Source: a bacterium
GTDB lineage: Bacteria > SZUA-182 > DTGQ01
Reading direction: 5' to 3'
DNA length: 24,223 nucleotides
NCBI GenBank assembly: GCA_040752695.1
Contig: JBFMGO010000092.1
Location: 1-24,223, forward strand
Shown here one piece after another: positions 91 through 13,426 of the stretch; positions within the stretch are counted from its first letter, which is position 1; each line of letters starts with the position of its first letter. Position numbers and translations under genes: made by a program. The notes beneath the pieces were generated by a model. It searched no databases. It was not told the origin of the DNA and saw only the letters and a list, made by a program, of their open reading frames with translations.

Positions 91-1044
91 CTAATTTTCA
101 TGCACGCTTACCGGAAGCACACCAATGTTTATACCCAGGGCCCGGAGAGGGGAAAGGGAGGCAGAATACGATGCTGATGATGAGCGTTGATTTATCCTGG
201 AAGTATCGGCCATATCACTGTTCTCCTTTCTCCCTTCCCCCCTTACCAGGCTATCAGTGCGACACGCTCCGATGCCAAACCTAAGCTGAAAAAATCTATG
301 CTTCACCTCTTCAGGTAAGCATGAGATCGCAACCTGATAACTATATCCGAGCCCTCGGTTTACGGCGGGAGTAAGCTGCCCGCTGGGTGTATTTTGCGTT
401 ATGTTATTTTGTGTGTTATTTGCGTATACCTTGCGTACTGTTTTGAATTCGTTTTTCTCAATCTTTTTCCGGATAGCTCTCTCAGTTACGCTAAAGAGGT
501 TCCTTAATCCTTTTACCGTAATCCACCACTCTCCGGCTTCGAAAATTGATTCAATGCTTTTATTTTCATTGTCTTGGCAGTCATTTTGATTTAAGGAACT
601 AATGCCATTTTGAGTGCTCTGATTGTTCCTTAATTTTAAGGAACTGGCTCTTTCCGCCGCAGCGGGTAAATCCTGATTTGATTTTGTATTATCAATAGGT
701 TGGGAAGTGGAGAGGGTAGGGGAGGGGGCTGTCGGACTTGTCGCACTTGTCGCACTTCGCATGCTTTTACCTGTCGGACTTGTCGCACTTGTCGCACTTC
801 GCATGCTTTTACCTGTCGGACTTGTCGCACTTGTCGCAGTTCCGTTCTCATAGCCGTCAAAGATACCCAGAAATTCTTTTTTCATCCATGTCACCTGGGA
901 TAAAGTAAAAAATGCTGTTTTCCCACCCCTGACAACCCTCCAGCTTGCCGGATCTATCTTACTGGAAGAAATCCATCGCTGGACCGTCCTCTCCGCCACT
1001 CCCAGCACCTCAGCGGCCTCTTTTGTTGATAATAGATCAGGCAT
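91..1044 (-). CDS. Two-HTH DNA-binding protein: N-terminal excisionase-like HTH (HTH_17/MerR-like), low-complexity linker, Mu-type winged HTH
   Basis: LLSTKEAAEVLGVAERTVQRWI at N-terminus; WITVKGLRNLFSVTERAIRKKIEK...GLGYSYQVAISCLPEEVK resembles the Mu repressor/transposase N-terminal domain; ATG 1044 with GAAAGGG upstream preferred over the TTG at 1068. Confidence 0.7.
   Translation of the reverse strand: MPDLLSTKEAAEVLGVAERTVQRWISSSKIDPASWRVVRGGKTAFFTLSQVTWMKKEFLGIFDGYENGTATSATSPTGKSMRSATSATSPTGKSMRSATSATSPTAPSPTLSTSQPIDNTKSNQDLPAAAERASSLKLRNNQSTQNGISSLNQNDCQDNENKSIESIFEAGEWWITVKGLRNLFSVTERAIRKKIEKNEFKTVRKVYANNTQNNITQNTPSGQLTPAVNRGLGYSYQVAISCLPEEVKHRFFQLRFGIGACRTDSLVRGEGRKENSDMADTSRINQRSSSASYSASLSPLRALGINIGVLPVSVHEN
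729..838. repeat. 42-bp tandem repeat (2 full copies plus 26 bp) built from 9-bp TGTCG(G/C)ACT subunits; encodes ATSATSPTGKSMRS repeats
   Basis: CTGTCGGACTTGTCGCACTTGTCGCACTTCGCATGCTTTTAC at 729 and 771, partial at 813. Confidence 0.95.
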
Positions 1045-1073
1045 TGCTACCCTTTCCCCAGCGTTCAACGTTG

Positions 1074-1082: not shown

Positions 1083-1122
1083 GTTAGAAAATATTCCATC
1101 TTGAAAGGAGGTGAAATTTATC

Positions 1123-1665
1123 ATGGAAAATGAATCCGAACCTAAACCTAAGCCAGTTGATTCATCGGTATTAGAAAAGGTCATCGACTTTTGCCTCTTA
1201 AACTTTCGAACTTATATTGCTGATATCCGCTCGGTGCAAATAGAGCTTTTAAAAACCTACCTTTGGATTTCTTCATTTCTTGTAACCGTTCAATTAGGAG
1301 TCTTTGAGTACTTTAAACCAGAGAAGCATTCCGGTTTATATTTCATTCCCTTTTGCCTGGGAGTTTCTTCTCTCATATTATCTCTTTGGGTTTTTGCTCT
1401 GGCCTTACTGAATCTGAGAGTCCCGAATAAGGAAATATTTTTTATCGATGATCCTGAAGTTTACTTTAATCAGGCTAATTCTCCGGATCAATGTCTACGG
1501 GCCTTCATTTATGATATTGATAAAACCAGCCGCAAAAATTTTGCTACCGATATTGAAACTGGGAAAAAAATCAGGAAATTAGCTTCTCCGTTAATTGTTT
1601 CTATTATTATTCTTATATTTTCAGCTATTTTTTACTATTTTCTAGGGTCTTATAACTTTCATTAA
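1123..1665 (+). CDS. Hypothetical integral membrane protein (about 3 TM segments), accessory gene antisense to the early operon
   Basis: AGGAGG RBS at 1106-1111; hydrophobic runs YLWISSFLVTVQLGVF, LYFIPFCLGVSSLILSLWVFALALL, LIVSIIILIFSAIFYYFLG. Confidence 0.75.
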   Translation: MENESEPKPKPVDSSVLEKVIDFCLLNFRTYIADIRSVQIELLKTYLWISSFLVTVQLGVFEYFKPEKHSGLYFIPFCLGVSSLILSLWVFALALLNLRVPNKEIFFIDDPEVYFNQANSPDQCLRAFIYDIDKTSRKNFATDIETGKKIRKLASPLIVSIIILIFSAIFYYFLGSYNFH

Positions 1666-1680
1666 ATTAAGGAGGCAGTC

Positions 1681-1836
1681 ATGGGAGATAAACCCCAAAA
1701 ACCCGACCAAGGTAAAGAATCTACCAACCATAAACCACCCCCTGTTACATCTAAAAAGGAAGAACTTATTATTGGAAAAAAGGATTTTCCCCTCTCACCC
1801 AAACAAAAACCACCAACTGATAATGACGAAGACTAA
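1681..1836 (+). CDS. 51-aa Pro/Lys-rich peptide (MGDKPQKPDQGKESTNHKPPPVTSKKEELIIGKKDFPLSPKQKPPTDNDED)
   Basis: AAGGAGG RBS 5 nt before ATG 1681, directly after the membrane gene; below the ORF-track cutoff. Confidence 0.7.
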   Translation: MGDKPQKPDQGKESTNHKPPPVTSKKEELIIGKKDFPLSPKQKPPTDNDED

Positions 1837-1860
1837 GAGAAATCCAATCATTGATCACCC

Positions 1861-2034
1861 CTACCCCTTATTCGTAGCTAATTCAACCAGTTCAAAGAAA
1901 TCTTCATACATGGTAAGCTTATGGCCCAATGGGTCCTTAAAGTCTAGCCATTGAAAATGGGCAATTATTTCATCCTTGCTCATCTCCTTAATTGGTTTAT
2001 TGGAGGGTATATATGATCCGGAAGTCTGTTTCAT
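1861..2034 (-). CDS. Small hypothetical protein (...DFKDPLGHKLTMYEDFFELVELA...)
   Basis: Open frame in the early-operon direction; start uncertain and overlaps the KTSC gene start head-to-head. Confidence 0.4.
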   Translation of the reverse strand: MKQTSGSYIPSNKPIKEMSKDEIIAHFQWLDFKDPLGHKLTMYEDFFELVELATNKG

Positions 2035-2225
2035 CTTCAAATATCCTTTCTGTTGGTTATGATAGAGAAACATCCATACTTGAAGTTAAATTTCATAGCG
2101 GTCATCTTTATCAATATGTTAATGTTCCTGAATCCGTTTACCATGCTTTAATGTCAGCTTCTTCTAAAGGTTCCTATCTCCATGCTCATATAAAAGACCG
2201 CTATCGTTGTCGCCAAGTAGGTTAG
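2013..2225 (+). CDS. KTSC domain protein
   Basis: VSSSNILSVGYD...LEVKFHSGHLYQYVNVPESVYHALMSASSKGSYLHAHIKDRY is the KTSC signature; GGAGG at 2002-2006, ATG 2013. Confidence 0.92.
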   Translation: MIRKSVSSSNILSVGYDRETSILEVKFHSGHLYQYVNVPESVYHALMSASSKGSYLHAHIKDRYRCRQVG

Positions 2226-5220: not shown

Positions 5221-6060
5221 TCAAAGCCCTGGGCATGATTGCGGAAGCTCAACCTCACCCACAGGGATCTCCTGCCACCCTTGGTCCACGGCCAGGTCTA
5301 CGGAGGTACTACTGACCAGGAGTTCTTTTCCCTCCAGCACCTTACCCTTTGAGGCTGAATAAGATAATGTTATCGGTTTAACATTAAAACTTTTAAACAC
5401 TTCCCTCATCTCTGGGAGGTCATTGATACTTAAAATAAATTTTCCTTTGAGGTCTCCAATTACTCTGGCCATTTCTTCATAATCACTTAAGACCATATTA
5501 TGTCTATAGTAAGGAGCCTTATAATAGGGTGGATCCAGGTAAAAGAATGTCTCTTCTCTATCATAACGCTTTACAAATTCTTGCCATGGTAAATGCTCGA
5601 TCAACACTCTGGCAAGCCTCAGATGGACCTCTGAAAGCTCCTCTTCCATCCTCACCAGATTAATTCTGATGTTTCTATTTACCTCTACACCGAATGTCCT
5701 ACTCTTCACTCTACCGGCAAAGCTTTGCCTCTGGAGATAATAATACCTGGCCGCTCTCTGGATATCGGTCAATCCACCCGCCTCCTGCTGTCTTTTCCAG
5801 TCATCAAACCATTCCCTGGACGAAAGGAGCCACTTAAACTGTCTTAAAAATTCTTCTAAATGGTGTTGAAGTACCCGGTAAAAAGCAATGAGATCACTAT
5901 CAAGATCATTAACGACCTCATATTTGGACGGTTCTTTTCTAAAAAACACCCATGCCGCTCCGGCGAACACTTCGCAGTACGTCTGATGTTGAGGAATTAA
6001 ATCGATGATTGTTTTTGAGAGCTTGCTTTTACCACCGATATAGGAGAGGGGACTATTCAT
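5221..6060 (-). CDS. D12-class (Dam-family) N6-adenine DNA methyltransferase, orphan
   Basis: SPLSYIGGKSKL, YCEVFAGAAWVFF (SAM binding), EVVNDLD, FFYLDPPY (catalytic motif IV). Confidence 0.95.
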   Translation of the reverse strand: MNSPLSYIGGKSKLSKTIIDLIPQHQTYCEVFAGAAWVFFRKEPSKYEVVNDLDSDLIAFYRVLQHHLEEFLRQFKWLLSSREWFDDWKRQQEAGGLTDIQRAARYYYLQRQSFAGRVKSRTFGVEVNRNIRINLVRMEEELSEVHLRLARVLIEHLPWQEFVKRYDREETFFYLDPPYYKAPYYRHNMVLSDYEEMARVIGDLKGKFILSINDLPEMREVFKSFNVKPITLSYSASKGKVLEGKELLVSSTSVDLAVDQGWQEIPVGEVELPQSCPGL

Positions 6061-6132
6061 TGACTTTACCCTTTACAAAATGTGCCTTTGCCACTCTTTA
6101 CAAAGTGAACCACTGATGGTTTACTTATTTAT

Positions 6133-6210
6133 TGAGTAGCAGCTTCGGCTGTGGTTCACAGCGCCTACTGTGGGTTAGTGGGGGTGGTTCGCGTCACCCC
6201 CGCCTACTCG
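6133..6210. ncRNA. Cloverleaf (four-way junction) structured RNA upstream of the methylase
   Basis: Closing stem GAGTAG/CTACTC; hairpins CAGC-TTCG-GCTG, CACAG-CGCCTA-CTGTG and GTGGGGGTG-GTTCGCGT-CACCCCCGC; GC-rich island in AT-rich DNA. Confidence 0.65.
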
Positions 6211-6213
6211 CTT

Positions 6214-6654
6214 GCATTTTCTAAGTGATAATCTATTATTTCTAATAGAAATAAATTAGACGCAATAACATTCAAATATATTACATCAGTTTTCAATAAA
6301 TGTGATTTGATCGGTTAAAATAGAAGGTTATTTAGGGGTACATTTTTGTTCCCCTATAACCATAGAGAGGAATAATAGATTTAAAATAGTTTTATCAATA
6401 CGTTAAATAGTTTTAATATTGTTATAAACGGTTTCTAAACGCAGTCTAAACATCGATACCCTGTATAAATCTTCTCTAAAACAGAATGAGAAGTTTATGA
6501 GTTATCCACAGATATTGTACTTTAAAACTTCTCATTTCTCTCAACCATAGATTAACCTTTGTCTACGTCTATCTCATTGACTCTTTTTGTAAAATAACTG
6601 TAAAGTTAGTAAAATTAATTTCCGCTACTTTCTAGCACAGACACTTAGAAATGC
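6214..6654. repeat. Inverted repeat GCATTT(T)CTAAGTG bracketing a ~440-bp AT-rich non-coding block
   Basis: GCATTTTCTAAGTG at 6214-6227 and CACTTAGAAATGC at 6642-6654 (one indel). Confidence 0.55.
6485..6536. promoter_or_regulatory. 12-bp perfect inverted repeat flanking a consensus DnaA box
   Basis: AATGAGAAGTTT (6485-6496), TTATCCACA (6502-6510), AAACTTCTCATT (6525-6536). Confidence 0.6.
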
Positions 6655-8809
6655 CATCTTCTCCAATAAAAGTAGGTGCAATCGAACCTGAGGGAGATCC
6701 TGCATTTGTCCGGTATCCGATTTGACCAAAGTTCACCCATGTCCCGGGGGTTCCGGCACCGGTACATACCCACCCTCGTGGTGCCCCCGCAGAAGAGACT
6801 TTGTTCAGAACCGTGTCTCCTACGATCCAGGTTCCGGCAGTAGGTGCCTTATCTCCGATCAGGGTTTTAGGCATATCGGTGGGGTAGACGAATACTCCTT
6901 TTCTGATAAATTCAATGGCATCCTGCAATTTATCGAATGCCAGAATTTGCAGGGCCGAAAACCGTATGGTATGGGCAGCCGCGGTATTATTGAAAACATA
7001 GATTCTGACAGTAAAATCTGTGCCGGGGTCAGGGTTTTCCGGGTGCCCTAACCCGACAAAGGAATACCACTTATTGGCAGTCTGCAATTTAAGCGAGCAG
7101 GAAAGGGGCCTGTCTCCGACCAATTGGACAGTGAGATTATTGTCCGGGGTGGTTAGTGTCTTGATATCGAGGGACCACACGATATATTTCCCGTGGGGAA
7201 TGGTCGCCGCCATAGGGCTGGTCGATGTCACACCGGCAGGGAACTCCACCTCGACGCATCGAGGGAAAATAACACCATCTCTTACCGTGGTTTCGGTCGA
7301 GGGGTTGCTGAAATTGTACGTGTCTTCATCGGCAAAGCTTTCCGATAAGCACAAAGTGCCATTATATCCATTTGTTATTATAGACCTTGGGACAGTGTTC
7401 AGGCAGGTGGAATATCCACCAATGGGCCTTGTTGAATTAATTATGTTTTGTATAAAGTAGTTCTCGGAAAACTTAAGATAATCTACTCTGACATTATCCA
7501 GCAGCAGCAGGGAATCATTGTCTTTTATCACATCAAAACTGCCTATATTGGGACCGACGTTATTACCAAATACAACGCTATTCACTAACTCTATACTGTT
7601 TAACTTTGAATTTGTGATCGTGGCAACATTGGTATCCTTAAATCGCAGTTCCCTCGGTGTATAGGCGATGCTGTTAATGGTGACGCTGCCCGCCGTGGCA
7701 TTGGATTCAAAATGGTCGTTGTTAATAATCAGGCCAGGAGAGGTATAGCCATGATAATTTTCAATAAAGAAAGCAAATCCGGGGTTACTCTCATGGATAC
7801 AATTGGTAAAAACTGTCTGCCCTGTTTCATAAGGGGAACTGATGTAAATGGATGCCAATTTTGCGGCCTCGAAATGGCAGTCGTAGAACCAGTCGCACCC
7901 GCAGTGCATGGTATGGCCTGTGGGGTTATCCGCATAGTAGTGGTAATTACAGACATCGAAGGCGCAATTTCTGAAGGTATTGCCGATATTCCCCGATGGT
8001 TTGCGGATGGCGATATTCAGATTGTCGAAGAAGAGTTTGTCAAAGACGACCCGTCCTATGTACTCATCTCCTGCCACATACGATCCGGCCACCCCGAATT
8101 GGATGCCGCCATCTGCCAGGGAGATGGAATCCCCGACTATGCTTAAATTTTTAATCGTGTGGGGTTTCCATGCCTCGACACTGCCTTTTAAGGTTAAGGC
8201 ATACCCGCCAGGGGTATAGGTCCGGAGAATCGTTGAATCCGTCTCCTCCCCGACAAGGTCTTTACTGTAAAGGGTTCCTACAGTCAAAACGATATTCGCC
8301 CGGTAGTACCCTTTAGGTACAAAGAGGCAGCTTCCTTCCGTATTCATGGCATCGAGGGCATAATTGAAGGCTGCGGTGTCGTCCGTTGTCCCATCACCTT
8401 TGGCACCCCACCAGGCAGGATATACCTTTGTGACGCAAGCGCCCTGGAAGGACACCCGGCCGGTTCCGGTGTAGGAAAAGGCCTGGTTATTCGGTGGGCA
8501 ATCAAAATCCCCAAGGATCGTGAGGTTATAGTTGCCAAGCTGGATGAGACCATTTTCCCCAATCTCCAAAGCCAGATTTGCGGGAAGTGTGGCATTCGCG
8601 GTCAGTGTAACCGTGGTGTTAATATCGATCGTCCTGTGCTGGGCTCCGAGGCTGGAGATAGCCGTATTCAGACTGTTCGAGTAGGAGCCGATCGAGACCC
8701 GATCCCCGATCTGATAGACGGTTCCGGTAAATGCCATAGTGAGGATTGCAAGGGGAAGTAACAACATGATTATCGTTTTTTTACCTATGGTTATCGCTTT
8801 TTTCTTCAT
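6632..8809 (-). CDS. Tail spike/fibre with a pectate-lyase-like beta-helix (putative depolymerase); signal-peptide-like N-terminus; C-terminus probably truncated
   Basis: WWGAKGDGTTDDTAAFNYALDA beta-helix cap motif, Asn/Cys-ladder repeats, C-terminal APTAGTWIVGD...GWVCTGAGTPGTW motif; last gene of the tail operon. Confidence 0.8.
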   Translation of the reverse strand: MKKKAITIGKKTIIMLLLPLAILTMAFTGTVYQIGDRVSIGSYSNSLNTAISSLGAQHRTIDINTTVTLTANATLPANLALEIGENGLIQLGNYNLTILGDFDCPPNNQAFSYTGTGRVSFQGACVTKVYPAWWGAKGDGTTDDTAAFNYALDAMNTEGSCLFVPKGYYRANIVLTVGTLYSKDLVGEETDSTILRTYTPGGYALTLKGSVEAWKPHTIKNLSIVGDSISLADGGIQFGVAGSYVAGDEYIGRVVFDKLFFDNLNIAIRKPSGNIGNTFRNCAFDVCNYHYYADNPTGHTMHCGCDWFYDCHFEAAKLASIYISSPYETGQTVFTNCIHESNPGFAFFIENYHGYTSPGLIINNDHFESNATAGSVTINSIAYTPRELRFKDTNVATITNSKLNSIELVNSVVFGNNVGPNIGSFDVIKDNDSLLLLDNVRVDYLKFSENYFIQNIINSTRPIGGYSTCLNTVPRSIITNGYNGTLCLSESFADEDTYNFSNPSTETTVRDGVIFPRCVEVEFPAGVTSTSPMAATIPHGKYIVWSLDIKTLTTPDNNLTVQLVGDRPLSCSLKLQTANKWYSFVGLGHPENPDPGTDFTVRIYVFNNTAAAHTIRFSALQILAFDKLQDAIEFIRKGVFVYPTDMPKTLIGDKAPTAGTWIVGDTVLNKVSSAGAPRGWVCTGAGTPGTWVNFGQIGYRTNAGSPSGSIAPTFIGEDGISKCLC

Positions 8810-9138: not shown

Positions 9139-9822
9139 CTATAGAGAAGATGGGAGGAGTGGCAGCTCGATATAAGAGAGCTCTCCCCCTGCATCGACAT
9201 CGTTTAAATCTCCAAAGCCTCCGGAATTGGTACTGTTTTCGAATCCAAAAGCATCATCCGAGTCAAACACCGCGATGTACCCGACTCTGATTCCTGCACC
9301 AACAACTTCCTGAGCAAAATTAAAGATATACCTCACGTAGTTAGTCACTATTGCACTCATCGTGATGTCGTTTTCCTGTACCAGATCGGCACCGCCTTCT
9401 GTAGTAAGATCCCACGTGAGATCCACAGGAGCATTGGAATAAATGGCAATTTCGGCAGGAAAATGCTCCGTCACCCGGATAACGGTTGCATTCGTATTAA
9501 TCAGTTTCCATATCGAAATGACCCTCTCCATGTCGCTCTCGGAGACATTTTTCCCAATTTTGGCTTTCAGCCATATCCGATAAACAGGGTCATCGAGGCC
9601 CATCCTGGCCTGACCAACTATCGATCCAATCCTGTCAAGCTGCTCCCCTTCGGACCCGTCAATATCGAGCCTGGTCAAAAGGGGCCAGGATGCATCCTCG
9701 ATCCTCTGGACCTGCAAGCCAAAAAGGGCATCGAGCAAATCTTTCAGTTTCTTTTTATCCGCATACTGGTAAAGCAGCCGCTTGGCTGCATCTATACTAT
9801 GGCTAGTAATTGGGGTGATCAT
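9139..9822 (-). CDS. Baseplate wedge partner of J (DUF2612/gpI-like)
   Basis: RLLYQY, LDIDGSEGEQLDRIGSIVGQAR, LDDPVYRIWLKAKIGKN, AFGF motifs. Confidence 0.8.
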   Translation of the reverse strand: MITPITSHSIDAAKRLLYQYADKKKLKDLLDALFGLQVQRIEDASWPLLTRLDIDGSEGEQLDRIGSIVGQARMGLDDPVYRIWLKAKIGKNVSESDMERVISIWKLINTNATVIRVTEHFPAEIAIYSNAPVDLTWDLTTEGGADLVQENDITMSAIVTNYVRYIFNFAQEVVGAGIRVGYIAVFDSDDAFGFENSTNSGGFGDLNDVDAGGELSYIELPLLPSSL

Positions 9823-9831
9823 GCGATTTCC

Positions 9832-9970
9832 TTATTCGACCTGGCATTCCTGGCATCCATGTCATCCATGTCATCCATGTCATTCGTGCCATTCGAATCA
9901 TTCGAATCATTCGAATCATCCAGGTCCTCATCCGTGTCCTCATTCGTATCATCCGTGTCATTCAACCTGG
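9832..9970. repeat. Degenerate 9/12-bp tandem array (G[GA]ATGA core on the minus strand) filling the spacer
   Basis: TCATCCATG x3, TCATTCGAA x3 and variants; begins and ends with copies of the upstream gene's last codons (CAGGTTGAATGA and CAGGTCGAATAA). Confidence 0.9.
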
Positions 9971-10443
9971 TATGTACGTCTGGCTTTGCTGACAAGGTCG
10001 TTCACCGTGATAGTAAATTCAATATAGTAATACCCTTGCGCCGCAGCCGGGATTAGTGCAAACACATTTTGCCCCAGGACGTCTGGCGTGCCTTCATCGC
10101 CTTGGGGAGTCCCGTCGGTGCTGTAAATCCGGTACTTCACATCATCGAATTCTATGGGGATGCCATCTGATCTGGTGACCGAGATCCCGATTTGCTTCCT
10201 CTCTCCCGTGAGCATATTGGCAACCGGGAAAGAGGATACCCCACCCTCAAGGGAAAACAGCAGGGGTGCCTCCATCGGATGGATAAGCAGCTCCAGGGGA
10301 TTTAAGGCAATGTCGATAACAGGTGGCAGGATTATCAGTGTGCCGGCTACCGTATCGGGCCGGATAACAAAGCAAACGGTAACGTCAGAGTAATAATCAC
10401 GCCACCAGACCGCAAGGTAGCTCTCAGTGATTTTACTTTTCAT
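9958..10443 (-). CDS. Hypothetical tail-associated protein with a C-terminal Ig/BppU-like beta-sandwich
   Basis: In the tail operon; GERKQIGISVT...KYRIYSTDG...GYYYIEFTITV beta-strand pattern. Confidence 0.55.
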   Translation of the reverse strand: MKSKITESYLAVWWRDYYSDVTVCFVIRPDTVAGTLIILPPVIDIALNPLELLIHPMEAPLLFSLEGGVSSFPVANMLTGERKQIGISVTRSDGIPIEFDDVKYRIYSTDGTPQGDEGTPDVLGQNVFALIPAAAQGYYYIEFTITVNDLVSKARRTYQVE

Positions 10444-10496
10444 TGCGGTATCCCTTTTTTCATTGCGGCTACCTCATTTTCAATGCGGCTACCTCA
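10437..10496. repeat. Three 20-bp copies of the RBS-start junction
   Basis: Minus strand TGAGGTAGCCGCATTGAAAA / TGAGGTAGCCGCAATGAAAA / AAGGGATACCGCAATGAAAA. Confidence 0.9.
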
Positions 10497-11403
10497 GCAT
10501 TTCGTACCAGAGCCAGATATAAGTAAAAATCCCGATCGTATTTGCTTCCCAGACTGTCCGGACATTGTGAGAAAAGTATAAACCACCAAACATTTCCATA
10601 AGGTCCAGTGCAAGCATATAGCGACAACCTGAGTTATCACTTACAGATATCATCCGCCAGGGAATCGAAGGAGCCCTGCCTCCAAAATACCAGGCATCGT
10701 CGAACCAATCTTCAGTACCAGTGGTTTCCAATGTCGGAGTTTGCGCCCCGTCAATATAAATCTGCATATTGGATTCAAGGACAGGATTCATCGTACTGTC
10801 TACGGTCAAAGTGTTATACAGCAGCCATCCCTCAGTATTGGTCAAATTGATATGCTGATAAGGAGTTCCCAGGGACAAGGGGGTGATCCAGGGAACACAG
10901 CTTGATTTTAACCGTAATGGAAGTTCCAGATTCGGGACGTTATAAATCTGGCTCGACATGGCCGATGTATATGCCACCGGATTATAGACCGTAATCTTGA
11001 CCCCTGTTGAGTACGGAATAGGGTAGCGAAAAACCATGCCGGTCGGAGACGTAGCGGATGATTGTCCTACCCACATATGCTTACACCAGCCGCCCCTGAA
11101 TCCTTGTGTATAGTAGAATGCGACTCCAAGGGTTCCCATGTCTATGTCGATTGAGGGCGTTATCTCTCCATCAATATAGACCTTGAACCGAGCCGCCCGT
11201 GCAACATGCTCTTCGACGAATGAGAGCCAGATATTTTTTATGACTCCTGCCCCTGTGAGGTCGCACAATACTTTTTCTTCTGCTGGTGCAATCTCTGCCC
11301 CTGATAATACGCCGACTGTCTGGATAGGCTTATAGAGCAGCCCAAGGTGAAGGCCATGTAATTCATGGTTATGTATGGATGGCATGATTTTATTATAGTG
11401 CAT
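10489..11403 (-). CDS. DUF2961/GH172-like protein, catalytic motifs intact
   Basis: LTGAGVIKNIWLS, KVYIDGEITPSID, FRYPIPYSTGVKITV, LESNMQIYIDG...TTGTEDWFDDAWYF. Confidence 0.8.
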   Translation of the reverse strand: MHYNKIMPSIHNHELHGLHLGLLYKPIQTVGVLSGAEIAPAEEKVLCDLTGAGVIKNIWLSFVEEHVARAARFKVYIDGEITPSIDIDMGTLGVAFYYTQGFRGGWCKHMWVGQSSATSPTGMVFRYPIPYSTGVKITVYNPVAYTSAMSSQIYNVPNLELPLRLKSSCVPWITPLSLGTPYQHINLTNTEGWLLYNTLTVDSTMNPVLESNMQIYIDGAQTPTLETTGTEDWFDDAWYFGGRAPSIPWRMISVSDNSGCRYMLALDLMEMFGGLYFSHNVRTVWEANTIGIFTYIWLWYEMLR

Positions 11404-11411
11404 TGCGCTGC

Positions 11412-11471
11412 CTCTATATTTTCGCTGTATTTCGCTATATTTTCTCTATATCTTCATCTTCTCTATATCTT
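11412..11471. repeat. About five degenerate 10-11-bp copies of the stop region
   Basis: Minus strand AAGATATAGAG, AAGATATAGAG, AAAATATAGCG, AAATACAGCG, AAAATATAGAG. Confidence 0.8.
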
Positions 11472-12422
11472 TTGATAATAGAGCCAGATGTAGCTCATAT
11501 CAAAATCGGTGACCATAGTTGGCGCAGTAGTGTCCAGAACTGCCCGTGCACCGGATTGGAAATATATCCCTCCAAGGAACTTCATAATATCCAGGCCGAT
11601 GTTGACCCGGAAAGTAACATCAAATCCTGCGGGGGGAAATAGTCTCCAGGAATTTACGTATGTATGCATATTTGATAAGAATTGTTTGCTATAGGAAAAA
11701 TTTTTGCATTTCCCAAAAAAACCGGGGAAATCCGGAGATTCAATAGACGGGCTTGATTCTCCATCGATGTAAATTTTCATCTTCGATTCGGCGAATGAGA
11801 TCCCGGCAGCACCATCCAGGATGGTTGAAAACCATACCAGCCATCCTTCGATGCCAGTCAGGTTGAAATATTCATACTCTGTGGGGGATGAAGCAAGAAT
11901 GGTGGCCTTGTTAGACCAGGGGAGATTGATTGACTTTAACCGCAGAGGAATATCTATCCCTAACGTGCGGTAAGTCTGGCAGAAGAACGGGGCTGATGTC
12001 GCCTCCGGATTGTACATGGTGATCCGGATGTGAGTTGAATAGGGGATCGGGAACCTTGTGCTGAAGCCGCCTCCACCATCAGGCTGCTGGGTAAAATGAA
12101 AATGCGTGGCACAGTGAGACTGCTGAGATACGGCATTCATCTGTCTATACCCTATTGACCCGCAATCGAATTGAATAGATGGAATTACCTCGTTGTCCAC
12201 ATAGATTCTCAGGATACAATTGATAAACGTATCGTTAAGGCCGCCAACTGCAAACCAGAGAGTGTCTATAATACCCGGCCCGTCCTCATCGAGGACAAGC
12301 CTTGTTTCCCCGGCCTCGATATATTCCCACTCGATCCGTCCGACAATTTGCTTTATTTTTGGCCTGAGCCCGAAATTAAAACCATAAAATTCATGATTTT
12401 TCATGTAGTGATGTATACTCAT
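11463..12422 (-). CDS. DUF2961/GH172-like paralog, second catalytic motif degenerate
   Basis: EDGPGIIDTLWF, LRIYVDNEVIPSI, FPIPYSTHIRIT, AESKMKIYIDGESSPSI; SPDFPGFF in place of TGTEDxF. Confidence 0.78.
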   Translation of the reverse strand: MSIHHYMKNHEFYGFNFGLRPKIKQIVGRIEWEYIEAGETRLVLDEDGPGIIDTLWFAVGGLNDTFINCILRIYVDNEVIPSIQFDCGSIGYRQMNAVSQQSHCATHFHFTQQPDGGGGFSTRFPIPYSTHIRITMYNPEATSAPFFCQTYRTLGIDIPLRLKSINLPWSNKATILASSPTEYEYFNLTGIEGWLVWFSTILDGAAGISFAESKMKIYIDGESSPSIESPDFPGFFGKCKNFSYSKQFLSNMHTYVNSWRLFPPAGFDVTFRVNIGLDIMKFLGGIYFQSGARAVLDTTAPTMVTDFDMSYIWLYYQKI

Positions 12423-12430
12423 GAGAATAT

Positions 12431-12503
12431 CCTTACGCCGGTTGTGATACCTTACGCCGGTTGATACCCTTACGTCGGTTGATACCCTTACGTCGGTTGA
12501 TAA
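12431..12503. repeat. Four 17-20-bp copies of the gene end plus TAAGG
   Basis: Minus strand TATCAACCGACGTAAGGG x2, TATCAACCGGCGTAAGG, TATCACAACCGGCGTAAGGA. Confidence 0.92.
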
Positions 12504-13426
12504 TAGAGCCAGGTATGGCCAAAGGAAAAGTCAGTAGCCATTGCTGCCGGAGTTGTATCAAGGACAGCTCTTGCGCCTGAATCGAACCTGATTCCACCAA
12601 AAAGCTCCAACAGGTCCACTCCGACGTTAAATTTCTTTGGATAAAATAATCCGTTCGGGCAAATCGAGAGCATTTTCCAAGATGTGGACATTGGCCATTC
12701 ATTGAAGTCATTGGAATCCATAAACCAGTTCAGAAGGTTTACAGAATCAATCGAGGGAGTACCTTCTCCATTCAGGTTAATACTGAGTTTAGACTGAAGG
12801 TGCGAGTTGTCCGTCACCGGTTCCATTGCCATTGAATGCCATACGATCCAGCCTTCTCCGGAGAGGTTAAAAAATTCATAGACGGTATTTTCCGATCCCA
12901 GGATAGTGATTTTGCCATCATAGGGGACATTGACCGACTTTAACCGCAGGGGGATATCGGCATCCGGGACATAATAAGCATAAGTGCTAATAGAGCTGGT
13001 CTGCGCGACATTGCTTTTAATTTGGATAACAATGCCGGTCGAATACGGAATGGGAAATCTGAAACATACTACCTCGGCAGGATAAGAGGAATTGGTCTCG
13101 GTAAAGACATGCTCAGTCCAGCCATTGGTATAGCCACTCGAAAAATGCAGCCCCAAGGAGCCAAGGTCAAAGTTCAAAGAAGGCGTACTTTCCCCATCGA
13201 CAAAGACTTTCAGCCTGGCATTTTTCAGGAAGGTATTATTGACAGACATCCCAAACCAGAGAGTGTCTATGTACCCCTTCCCGGAGATAGAACAAATGGT
13301 CTTCTCCTCATAAGCGGCAAAGGCAAGTGTTTTATTCACTCCAGCCGTTCTGTGCCTGGCTTTCAATAATCCAAGGTTAAGGCCATGATATTGATGGGAT
13401 GTTATAAGGGCATTTTGAACCGACAT
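12488..13426 (-). CDS. DUF2961/GH172-like paralog, both catalytic positions substituted
   Basis: ISGKGYIDTLWF, LKVFVDGESTPSL, FRFPIPYSTGIVIQI; LQSKLSINLNGEGTPSIDSVNLLNWF. Confidence 0.75.
   Translation of the reverse strand: MSVQNALITSHQYHGLNLGLLKARHRTAGVNKTLAFAAYEEKTICSISGKGYIDTLWFGMSVNNTFLKNARLKVFVDGESTPSLNFDLGSLGLHFSSGYTNGWTEHVFTETNSSYPAEVVCFRFPIPYSTGIVIQIKSNVAQTSSISTYAYYVPDADIPLRLKSVNVPYDGKITILGSENTVYEFFNLSGEGWIVWHSMAMEPVTDNSHLQSKLSINLNGEGTPSIDSVNLLNWFMDSNDFNEWPMSTSWKMLSICPNGLFYPKKFNVGVDLLELFGGIRFDSGARAVLDTTPAAMATDFSFGHTWLYYQPT

Follow-up and report, generated by a model that had tools for sequence, protein, structure and literature searches.

The window, by which we mean the whole 24,223-nucleotide stretch of DNA that was analysed, is a stretch of prophage in which minus-strand genes for tail sheath, tape measure, baseplate and tail fibre run down to position 6632 and are followed by a 570-bp gap, a D12 adenine methyltransferase gene (6060-5221) and a repressor-like region. 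The last structural gene upstream of the methylase encodes a tail fibre or spike protein (6632..8809, minus strand; phrog_27367) and is the probable source of read-through transcription into the methylase leader. The methylase itself (5221..6060, minus strand, 279 amino acids; PF02086, E 9.5e-27; phrog_56) is a D12-class N6-adenine DNA methyltransferase and a relative of the Dam protein of phage B3. In B3 this Dam follows com; the gap before the window methylase (6061-6640) holds no com-like ORF of at least 20 amino acids. The DNA-modifying enzymes of temperate phages could harm the host if mistimed, hence the interest of any cassette that controls them, and to our knowledge it is little understood, outside phage Mu, how such enzymes are restrained.

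Several further features of the region are recorded here. The methylase runs about 27 amino acids (5221-5307, minus strand) past the usual end, at about 252 amino acids, of most homologs, possibly through a lost stop or a recombination join. The same genome carries a second prophage methylase, 74% identical (G000:C85:2415-3179; L012 and L175), which lies about 40 nt behind its upstream gene and is without a copy of the cloverleaf RNA described below; no second copy of that RNA was found in the window's own genome. An odd short tail closes the tail fibre gene (6632-6680, minus strand), perhaps through truncation or loss of cargo, and a 400-bp AT-rich gap separates the gene from the RNA. Beside the contig end, an HTH_17 protein with an internal tandem repeat of about 13 amino acids in three copies (91-1068, minus strand) may represent the first part of a gene for a transposase or an excisionase-like protein, and small genes opposing the direction of the early region (1111-2225, plus strand), among them a KTSC-domain gene (1992-2225) and a membrane-like ORF, are possible cargo. 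Within the tail module lie three neighbouring paralogous genes of about 310 amino acids each (10489-13426, minus strand), of which the one scanned is a DUF2961 gene, and short tandem repeats with low-complexity ORFs on both strands fall between the baseplate genes (9780-9995).

The cloverleaf RNA, its family and its strand

The gap before the methylase contains, on the plus strand, a four-way-junction core of four helices with zero unpaired junction bases (6134..6209), which scores 77.8 bits against a covariation model of which it is a training member and which extends to 78 nt with the flanking 6133/6210 pair. Its helices are P1 (6134-39/6204-09), P2 with a UUCG loop (6140-43/6148-51), P3 (6152-61/6168-77) and the 9-bp P4 (6178-86/6195-6203). 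A sequence-only reading of this DNA had placed a 78-nt four-way junction here and had pointed to a cUUCGg tetraloop and to a G-U pair in the 9-bp stem; the minimum-energy structure of 6133-6210 is indeed this cloverleaf (-36.9 kcal/mol, z -2.79, 2 of 200 shuffles equal or better), with the tetraloop capping P2 and the G-U pair at U6179-G6202. The longer segment 6105-6210 folds more stably than any of 200 shuffles (z -3.95), and at its 5' side lies a local hairpin (6103..6126, plus strand), which takes in 6105-6113 and whose position resembles that of an extra 5' hairpin in homologs. With the flanks included (6132-6222), a rival fold at -39.3 beats the cloverleaf at -35.8 by about 3.5 kcal/mol, coaxial stacking being outside the model, and the centroid structure of 6105-6210 loses P1-P3. 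The fold of this single sequence is thus indecisive, and the case for the cloverleaf rests chiefly on covariation among homologs.

We gathered 175 loci of related methylases with an upstream region. Of the 140 distinct ones, 133 reach 170 nt or more upstream of the gene, and 112 of the 133 encode a methylase with a protein identity of 55% or above. The cloverleaf RNA is present in 96 of these 112: 45, the window included, match one covariation model (R1), 51 match a second (R2) and 16 match neither, all matches lying on the antisense strand; 61 of the 96 are training sequences of the models (27 for R1, 34 for R2), and one locus (L112) is counted through its identical twin (L001). Below 55% identity 7 of 21 loci match R1. 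By eye, ten further loci below 55%, and also B3, VP882, phiE125, phiHAP-1 and TJ1, seem to have a comparable antisense layout that includes a U-run and a very short P2; of these only phiHAP-1 scored with a model at the site (25 bits); phiHAP-1, VP882, TJ1 and B3 are cultured phages. Both models also match weakly inside the B3 tape-measure gene (L176:2399-2494, minus strand; 19.4 and 13.8 bits), probably by chance.

The family divides into two subfamilies, A (to which the window belongs) and B, and R2, the model of subfamily B, cross-detects three members of A at 28-37 bits. The covariation upstream of homologous methylases that the sequence-only reading had proposed to look for is present: over 27 aligned sequences of subfamily A, 25 of 30 pairs show changes of both partners, covariation extends to each of the four helices, and 96% of 807 cells are paired, a figure equalled by none of 500 shuffles and set against 39-51% in slid controls, over which the structure is favoured through having been drawn by hand from the same 27-sequence alignment. 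These 27 were taken from 41 sequences, the 14 with a longer P2 being excluded for misalignment by MAFFT and later recovered by R1. In subfamily B, RNAalifold found the same four-way junction unaided, and the junction bases are almost invariant.

The strand is indicated in two ways. Consensus folding favours the antisense strand over the mRNA strand in both subfamilies, at -32.4 against -11.1 for the same 41 sequences of A and at -44.5 (34 sequences) against -28.0 (40 sequences) for B. In addition, G-U cells exceed A-C cells by 113 to 7 in the 27 members of A and by 104 to 8 in B; in the window 5 of 29 pairs are G-U on the plus strand, which would be A-C on the minus strand. An early reading as a sense-strand leader RNA was dropped after the consensus folding of the two strands, and the plus-strand RNA antisense to the methylase leader suggested at the outset is upheld. 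The loop sequences are free to vary from member to member, and many read UUNNNG, a form that resembles the U-turn loops of plasmid antisense systems. One earlier impression, a T-loop-like GUUCG loop, belongs to the window only, since the loop is not conserved among homologs and P4 loops vary in the 27 and the 34 aligned members. Taken together, the comparative evidence indicates that the conserved cloverleaf is a real antisense RNA family with a plus-strand gene. The family is apparently undescribed so far: the literature searched, which includes few subscription papers, contained no description of this RNA. No similar DNA turned up in the phage collection or, for the phiHAP-1 leader, in E. 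coli genomes.

Promoter-like signals accompany the RNA. By a simple custom scoring of 50 A and 42 B loci, the best antisense promoter of sigma-70 type reaches 8.4-8.5; shuffled sequences give 7.0-7.1 (sd 0.8-0.9) and the mRNA strand 7.1. Its -35 element adjoins the Shine-Dalgarno DNA. Its -10 element usually has an upstream TG and often ends in a base other than T, and at 60 of the 92 loci it lies 32-39 nt from the start codon; the distance between the two elements is kept across a variable spacer sequence. The best sites of subfamily B have the -11 A in 42 of 42 cases and TG in 35-37 of 42, letters that the scoring itself favours. Behind P1 the family loci carry U-runs, the T fraction there being 0.41 and 0.51 against a background of 0.27. 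The window has a candidate promoter (6097..6125, plus strand: -35 at 6097-6102, a 17-bp spacer, TG at 6117-18, a weak -10 at 6120-25 with T in place of the -11 A), which shares its layout with the closest match, L098, goes unlisted by a consensus promoter scan and predicts a start near 6132. A second, degenerate copy (6072..6097, plus strand: -35 at 6072-77, TG at 6089-90, a 14-bp spacer) would adjoin the Shine-Dalgarno site and give a start near 6104. Compared with L098 the window has some 25 nt of extra leader and two -35 copies, so that the RNA may start at either place. A U-rich 3' end (6210..6222, plus strand) is a likely terminator tail. Signals resembling a promoter and a terminator of its own thus appear to belong to the antisense RNA at the level of the family, and are weak in the window. 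The window's copy may be partly decayed, as judged by this weak promoter, by the G-U load of P3 (G-U at four of five G-U-prone positions) and by the slight hiding of the ribosome site described below.

Association with DNA-modification genes

A DNA pattern scan that made no use of the protein returned 71 loci, 19 of them with strong R1 matches (15 distinct, three of the 15 already known). Every one of the 19 precedes a methyltransferase or com: 13 stand before a D12 enzyme, one before a ParB-N6/N4 enzyme and five before com, which is followed in turn by an N6/N4 enzyme, by a C5 enzyme, by a gene truncated at the contig end and, at two loci identical to each other, by genes that include an ATPase. 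In these last two (L195:1328-2428 and L232), the RNA and com stand before a 75-aa ORF and an ABC-type ATPase (phrog_11143), with no methylase within the locus; the pair may be an unrecognised DNA-modification cassette. Among 151 genomes of the phylum of L006, R1 has four sites in three genomes, all four preceding a modification gene or com (three before D12 enzymes, one before the com-mom pair of L378), and R2 has one match, in the seed genome. Two strict pattern scans returned only contigs already collected, and a loose pattern for subfamily B gave one model match among the 80 loci listed of 119 stretches, on a known contig, so that the protein-independent association rests on subfamily A.

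The RNA tracks a shared function, DNA modification (D12, N6/N4, C5, Mom), rather than any single protein family, and is found together with Com. The idea that the lack of a Com protein accounts for the RNA is not supported by this comparison: com is absent here, yet the same RNA precedes com in five of the 19 loci and in the com-mom locus L378, and the RNA is no replacement for Com. What the association points to is a portable RNA control cassette common to unrelated DNA-modification enzymes, and we consider it probable, from these sequence comparisons, that the antisense RNA controls the downstream modification gene.

Such control need not involve pairing with the messenger. The RNA could act through a protein or in trans, for example as a junction-shaped decoy for the methylase or Com, or its promoter could simply collide with late transcription. 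The nearly invariant junction bases of subfamily B and a promoter that abuts the ribosome-site DNA are compatible with this, as is momP2, the divergent competing promoter of Mu (PMC3378877). A protein partner shared by enzymes of such unrelated folds or classes (D12, N6/N4, C5, Mom) is unlikely, however, and the free variation of the loops is what would be expected if the opposite strand is the target; we regard action of this kind as very improbable.

The messenger leader and the direction of the proposed control

The mRNA leader has folds of its own. Comparing each leader's own duplex energy with that of permuted partners (55 and 38 loci, in which kin are not independent), we found stronger own pairing of the P2/P1 strand with the promoter-spacer region in both subfamilies (-15.9 against -12.9 and -11.4 against -9.9), of P3 with the ribosome site and start codon in subfamily B (-17.2 against -13.9) and of P4 with the Shine-Dalgarno or ribosome site in part of subfamily A (-12.5 against -11.3). 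Two controls in which the partner was coding sequence gave a signal as well (p 0.004 and 0.018), a sign that kinship and GC content inflate the permutation p-values. At one locus with an unrelated enzyme (L220), P4 complements its own ribosome site over 13 consecutive pairs, ranking first of 55. These comparisons indicate that a fold-back of the mRNA leader is conserved and covaries in homologs. The window's version of the P2/P1-to-spacer helix (6084..6149, minus strand) pairs 6134-41 with 6089-96 and 6147-49 with 6084-86, at -17.3 (rank 7 of 55).

A leader with alternative folds had been foreseen, and more than one fold is possible. The particular pairing then proposed, a 9-nt complement between 6151-6159 and 6105-6113, does exist, 45 nt ahead of the methylase ATG (6060); an inverted repeat of at least 9 bp arises in 24 of 2000 shuffles of 6101-6212. 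It is not borne out as a conserved switch. The pairing is energetically disfavoured (6105..6159, -35.2 against -39.9), and the corresponding P3-to-spacer pairing of the family is hardly stronger than permuted partners (-10.96 against -10.57, p 0.12); the conserved long-range helix uses the neighbouring P2/P1 strand and not the P3 strand.

The leader might do all this by itself, as a kinetic switch that is briefly open during synthesis and then closed, its A-C mismatches being selected to weaken early hairpins and the structure and promoter of the opposite strand being by-products. The covarying fold-back is what such a switch would need, and in subfamily A the fold-back helix also engages the bases that face the extended -10, which offers another reason for part of their conservation. 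Mismatches other than A-C/G-U are, however, rare (25 and 23 cells against 113 and 104 G-U), the -11 A and TG of subfamily B fall in a stretch mostly unpaired in the mRNA folds, the spacing of -35 and -10 is held over a variable spacer, and U-runs stand behind P1. We therefore hold a role for the messenger alone to be improbable.

Our preferred proposal, to which we give about even chances, is that cis-antisense control holds methylase levels down until the late genes are transcribed. Its computed basis comprises the structure, the strand, the family, the gene association, the promoter-like signal and the covarying mRNA fold-back in homologs; transcription, pairing in vivo, the nuclease, direction and timing are what we infer. 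A small plus-strand gene with a housekeeping-type promoter over the translation-start region of the methylase would yield a U-ended RNA of 80-120 nt that adopts the four-way junction, complements the methylase leader along its whole length and starts 45-70 nt short of the AUG. Alone, the leader would either form local mirror hairpins, which A-C mismatches weaken, or fold back over spacer and ribosome site. The RNA would most likely meet the leader loop to loop and then zip into a long duplex, stray transcripts of the late operon in the lysogen would be removed by RNase III and convergent transcription, and methylase would be made only once late transcription outruns the antisense RNA.

As the direction of this control, silencing is favoured because of precedent and because of the harm of untimely modification: SymR represses its target (PMC1891008), as does IsoA1 (PMC5416894), and mistimed expression of Mu mom is cytotoxic (PMC3378877). 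By analogy with these systems, silencing is a reading that we would neither wager on nor against.

The base-pair logic points the other way, to activation, since it is the hiding strand that the RNA would cover, the ribosome site being left free. In loci whose promoter score is 7.9 or higher, hiding of the ribosome site exceeds that of shuffled leaders in all 25 from subfamily B and in 16 of 33 from A; in the window it is weak. When the stretch covered by the RNA is masked, the cost of opening the ribosome site falls in 22 of 25 B loci and 19 of 34 A loci and rises in 3 B and 10 A loci, a calculation biased in that removal of a partner lowers the cost trivially; that the cost falls in most loci points to activation and against silencing. 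The opposite notion, that antisense binding frees a strand which then hides the ribosome site, was set aside with little support, the opening values of the 3' fragment being 6.5 and 7.4 against 5.7 and 6.1 with a shuffled spacer (20 of 33 and 18 of 25 loci).

The RNA might accordingly license translation: the leader would be off by default, an upstream strand hiding the Shine-Dalgarno site or AUG, and the antisense RNA would dock on a free hairpin loop, pair with the hiding strand and free the ribosome site, output being capped by the antisense pool. We consider this possible and rather unlikely. The predicted RNA start lies 45-72 nt upstream of the AUG (45-52 nt in most loci) and leaves the ribosome site uncovered, the hiding strand falls within the complementary stretch, the opening cost drops on masking in 41 of 59 loci, and the folds of L097, L120, L014 and L019 keep a hairpin with a UUNNNG-type loop while the other arm pairs with the ribosome site. 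Weighing against it, a gene that may do harm would have its leaky transcripts translated if the activator were constitutive, RNase III acts on duplexes of the length expected here (about 100 bp), the computation is biased towards opening, and for the leader of the window itself masking is predicted to make no difference (4.3 kcal/mol free, 4.2 masked). An activating cis-antisense RNA has been reported for mazEF (PMC8749433). A broader form of this picture is of a widespread phage RNA that switches on translation of modification genes, output needing both late transcription and the RNA, the same cassette having come to stand before com and before D12, N6/N4, C5 and Mom enzymes, and the hiding strand being re-tuned for each start region, for which the chances also seem rather poor; if true, an activating cis-antisense RNA of this sort would be unusual and usable as a synthetic switch.

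Comparison with known RNAs and systems

The scan of Rfam that had been suggested for the window and related loci gave no family match. In the window no model reached its gathering score, 5900-6700 showing only two chance matches (E 2.5 and 6.7), and at the motif in 40 related loci the only match was to SymR, below threshold. The likeness to a tRNA first remarked upon falls away, with ARAGORN finding 0 genes, Rfam none, and variable P4 loops in place of a conserved T-loop. Rfam includes the models C4, c4-2 and c4-a1b1, none of which matches the window or the 40 related loci; it probably also includes one for the D12-methyl RNA motif, for which the same scans gave no hit.

C4 RNA, with which P4 CI is grouped as a multi-hairpin phage RNA, is encoded on the strand of its target, with which it pairs by way of conserved short loops. 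The RNA described here does not bear out the early analogy with C4 and CI, having no Rfam match to them and being fully complementary in cis from the opposite strand; its loops are variable and its P3-to-spacer pairing is not conserved. The likeness that remains is to the C4 RNA of P1/P7 as a multi-hairpin phage RNA that recognises its target by loops (PMC12197685). An automated candidate, DNAVirus_549 (85 nt, 9 sequences, Desulfuromonadales hosts, at most 25 bp from dam genes, listed as palindromic), may overlap this family (PMC10690425).

The com-mom system of Mu has the same genomic role, a late DNA-modification gene restrained at translation, and the RNA family precedes the com-mom pair of L378 and, by eye, com-dam of phage B3. 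The systems differ in that the window has no com, whereas Mu uses the Com protein, OxyR/Dam, C and Fis, and its momP2 is a divergent promoter competing with Pmom, not as a convergent structured RNA (PMC3378877).

SymR (RF01809), of E. coli symE, resembles the RNA in that its 3' hairpin is like P4, and the antisense strand of the phiHAP-1 relative scores 29.8 bits against it (E 0.11; gathering score 61). SymR is formed of two hairpins and overlaps the symE start codon, whereas the cloverleaf RNA is a closed four-way junction that stops before the ribosome site and accompanies DNA-modification genes. Identity with SymR was rejected: the window has no match, the phiHAP-1 relative falls below 61, the neighbouring gene is PF02086 and not symE, and the RNA as predicted does not overlap the start codon.

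Type I antitoxins, among which hok/Sok is a system of the same sort as IsoA1/aapA1, offer a parallel in mechanism. In the cloverleaf family the RNA would target an enzyme gene that closes a tail operon, and it is the hiding strand that would be covered. In IsoA1/aapA1 the fold of the mRNA is itself silencing, and kissing loops bring in the antisense RNA before a long duplex forms; IsoA1 differs in that the ribosome site is what it masks and in that it binds the mRNA only in its processed, active form (PMC5416894). By analogy, then, the RNA would work like SymR and the type I antitoxins, yet it lacks the marks by which their members are recognised; by its conserved structure on the antisense strand, as judged from sequence comparison, it is probably a cis-antisense regulatory RNA.
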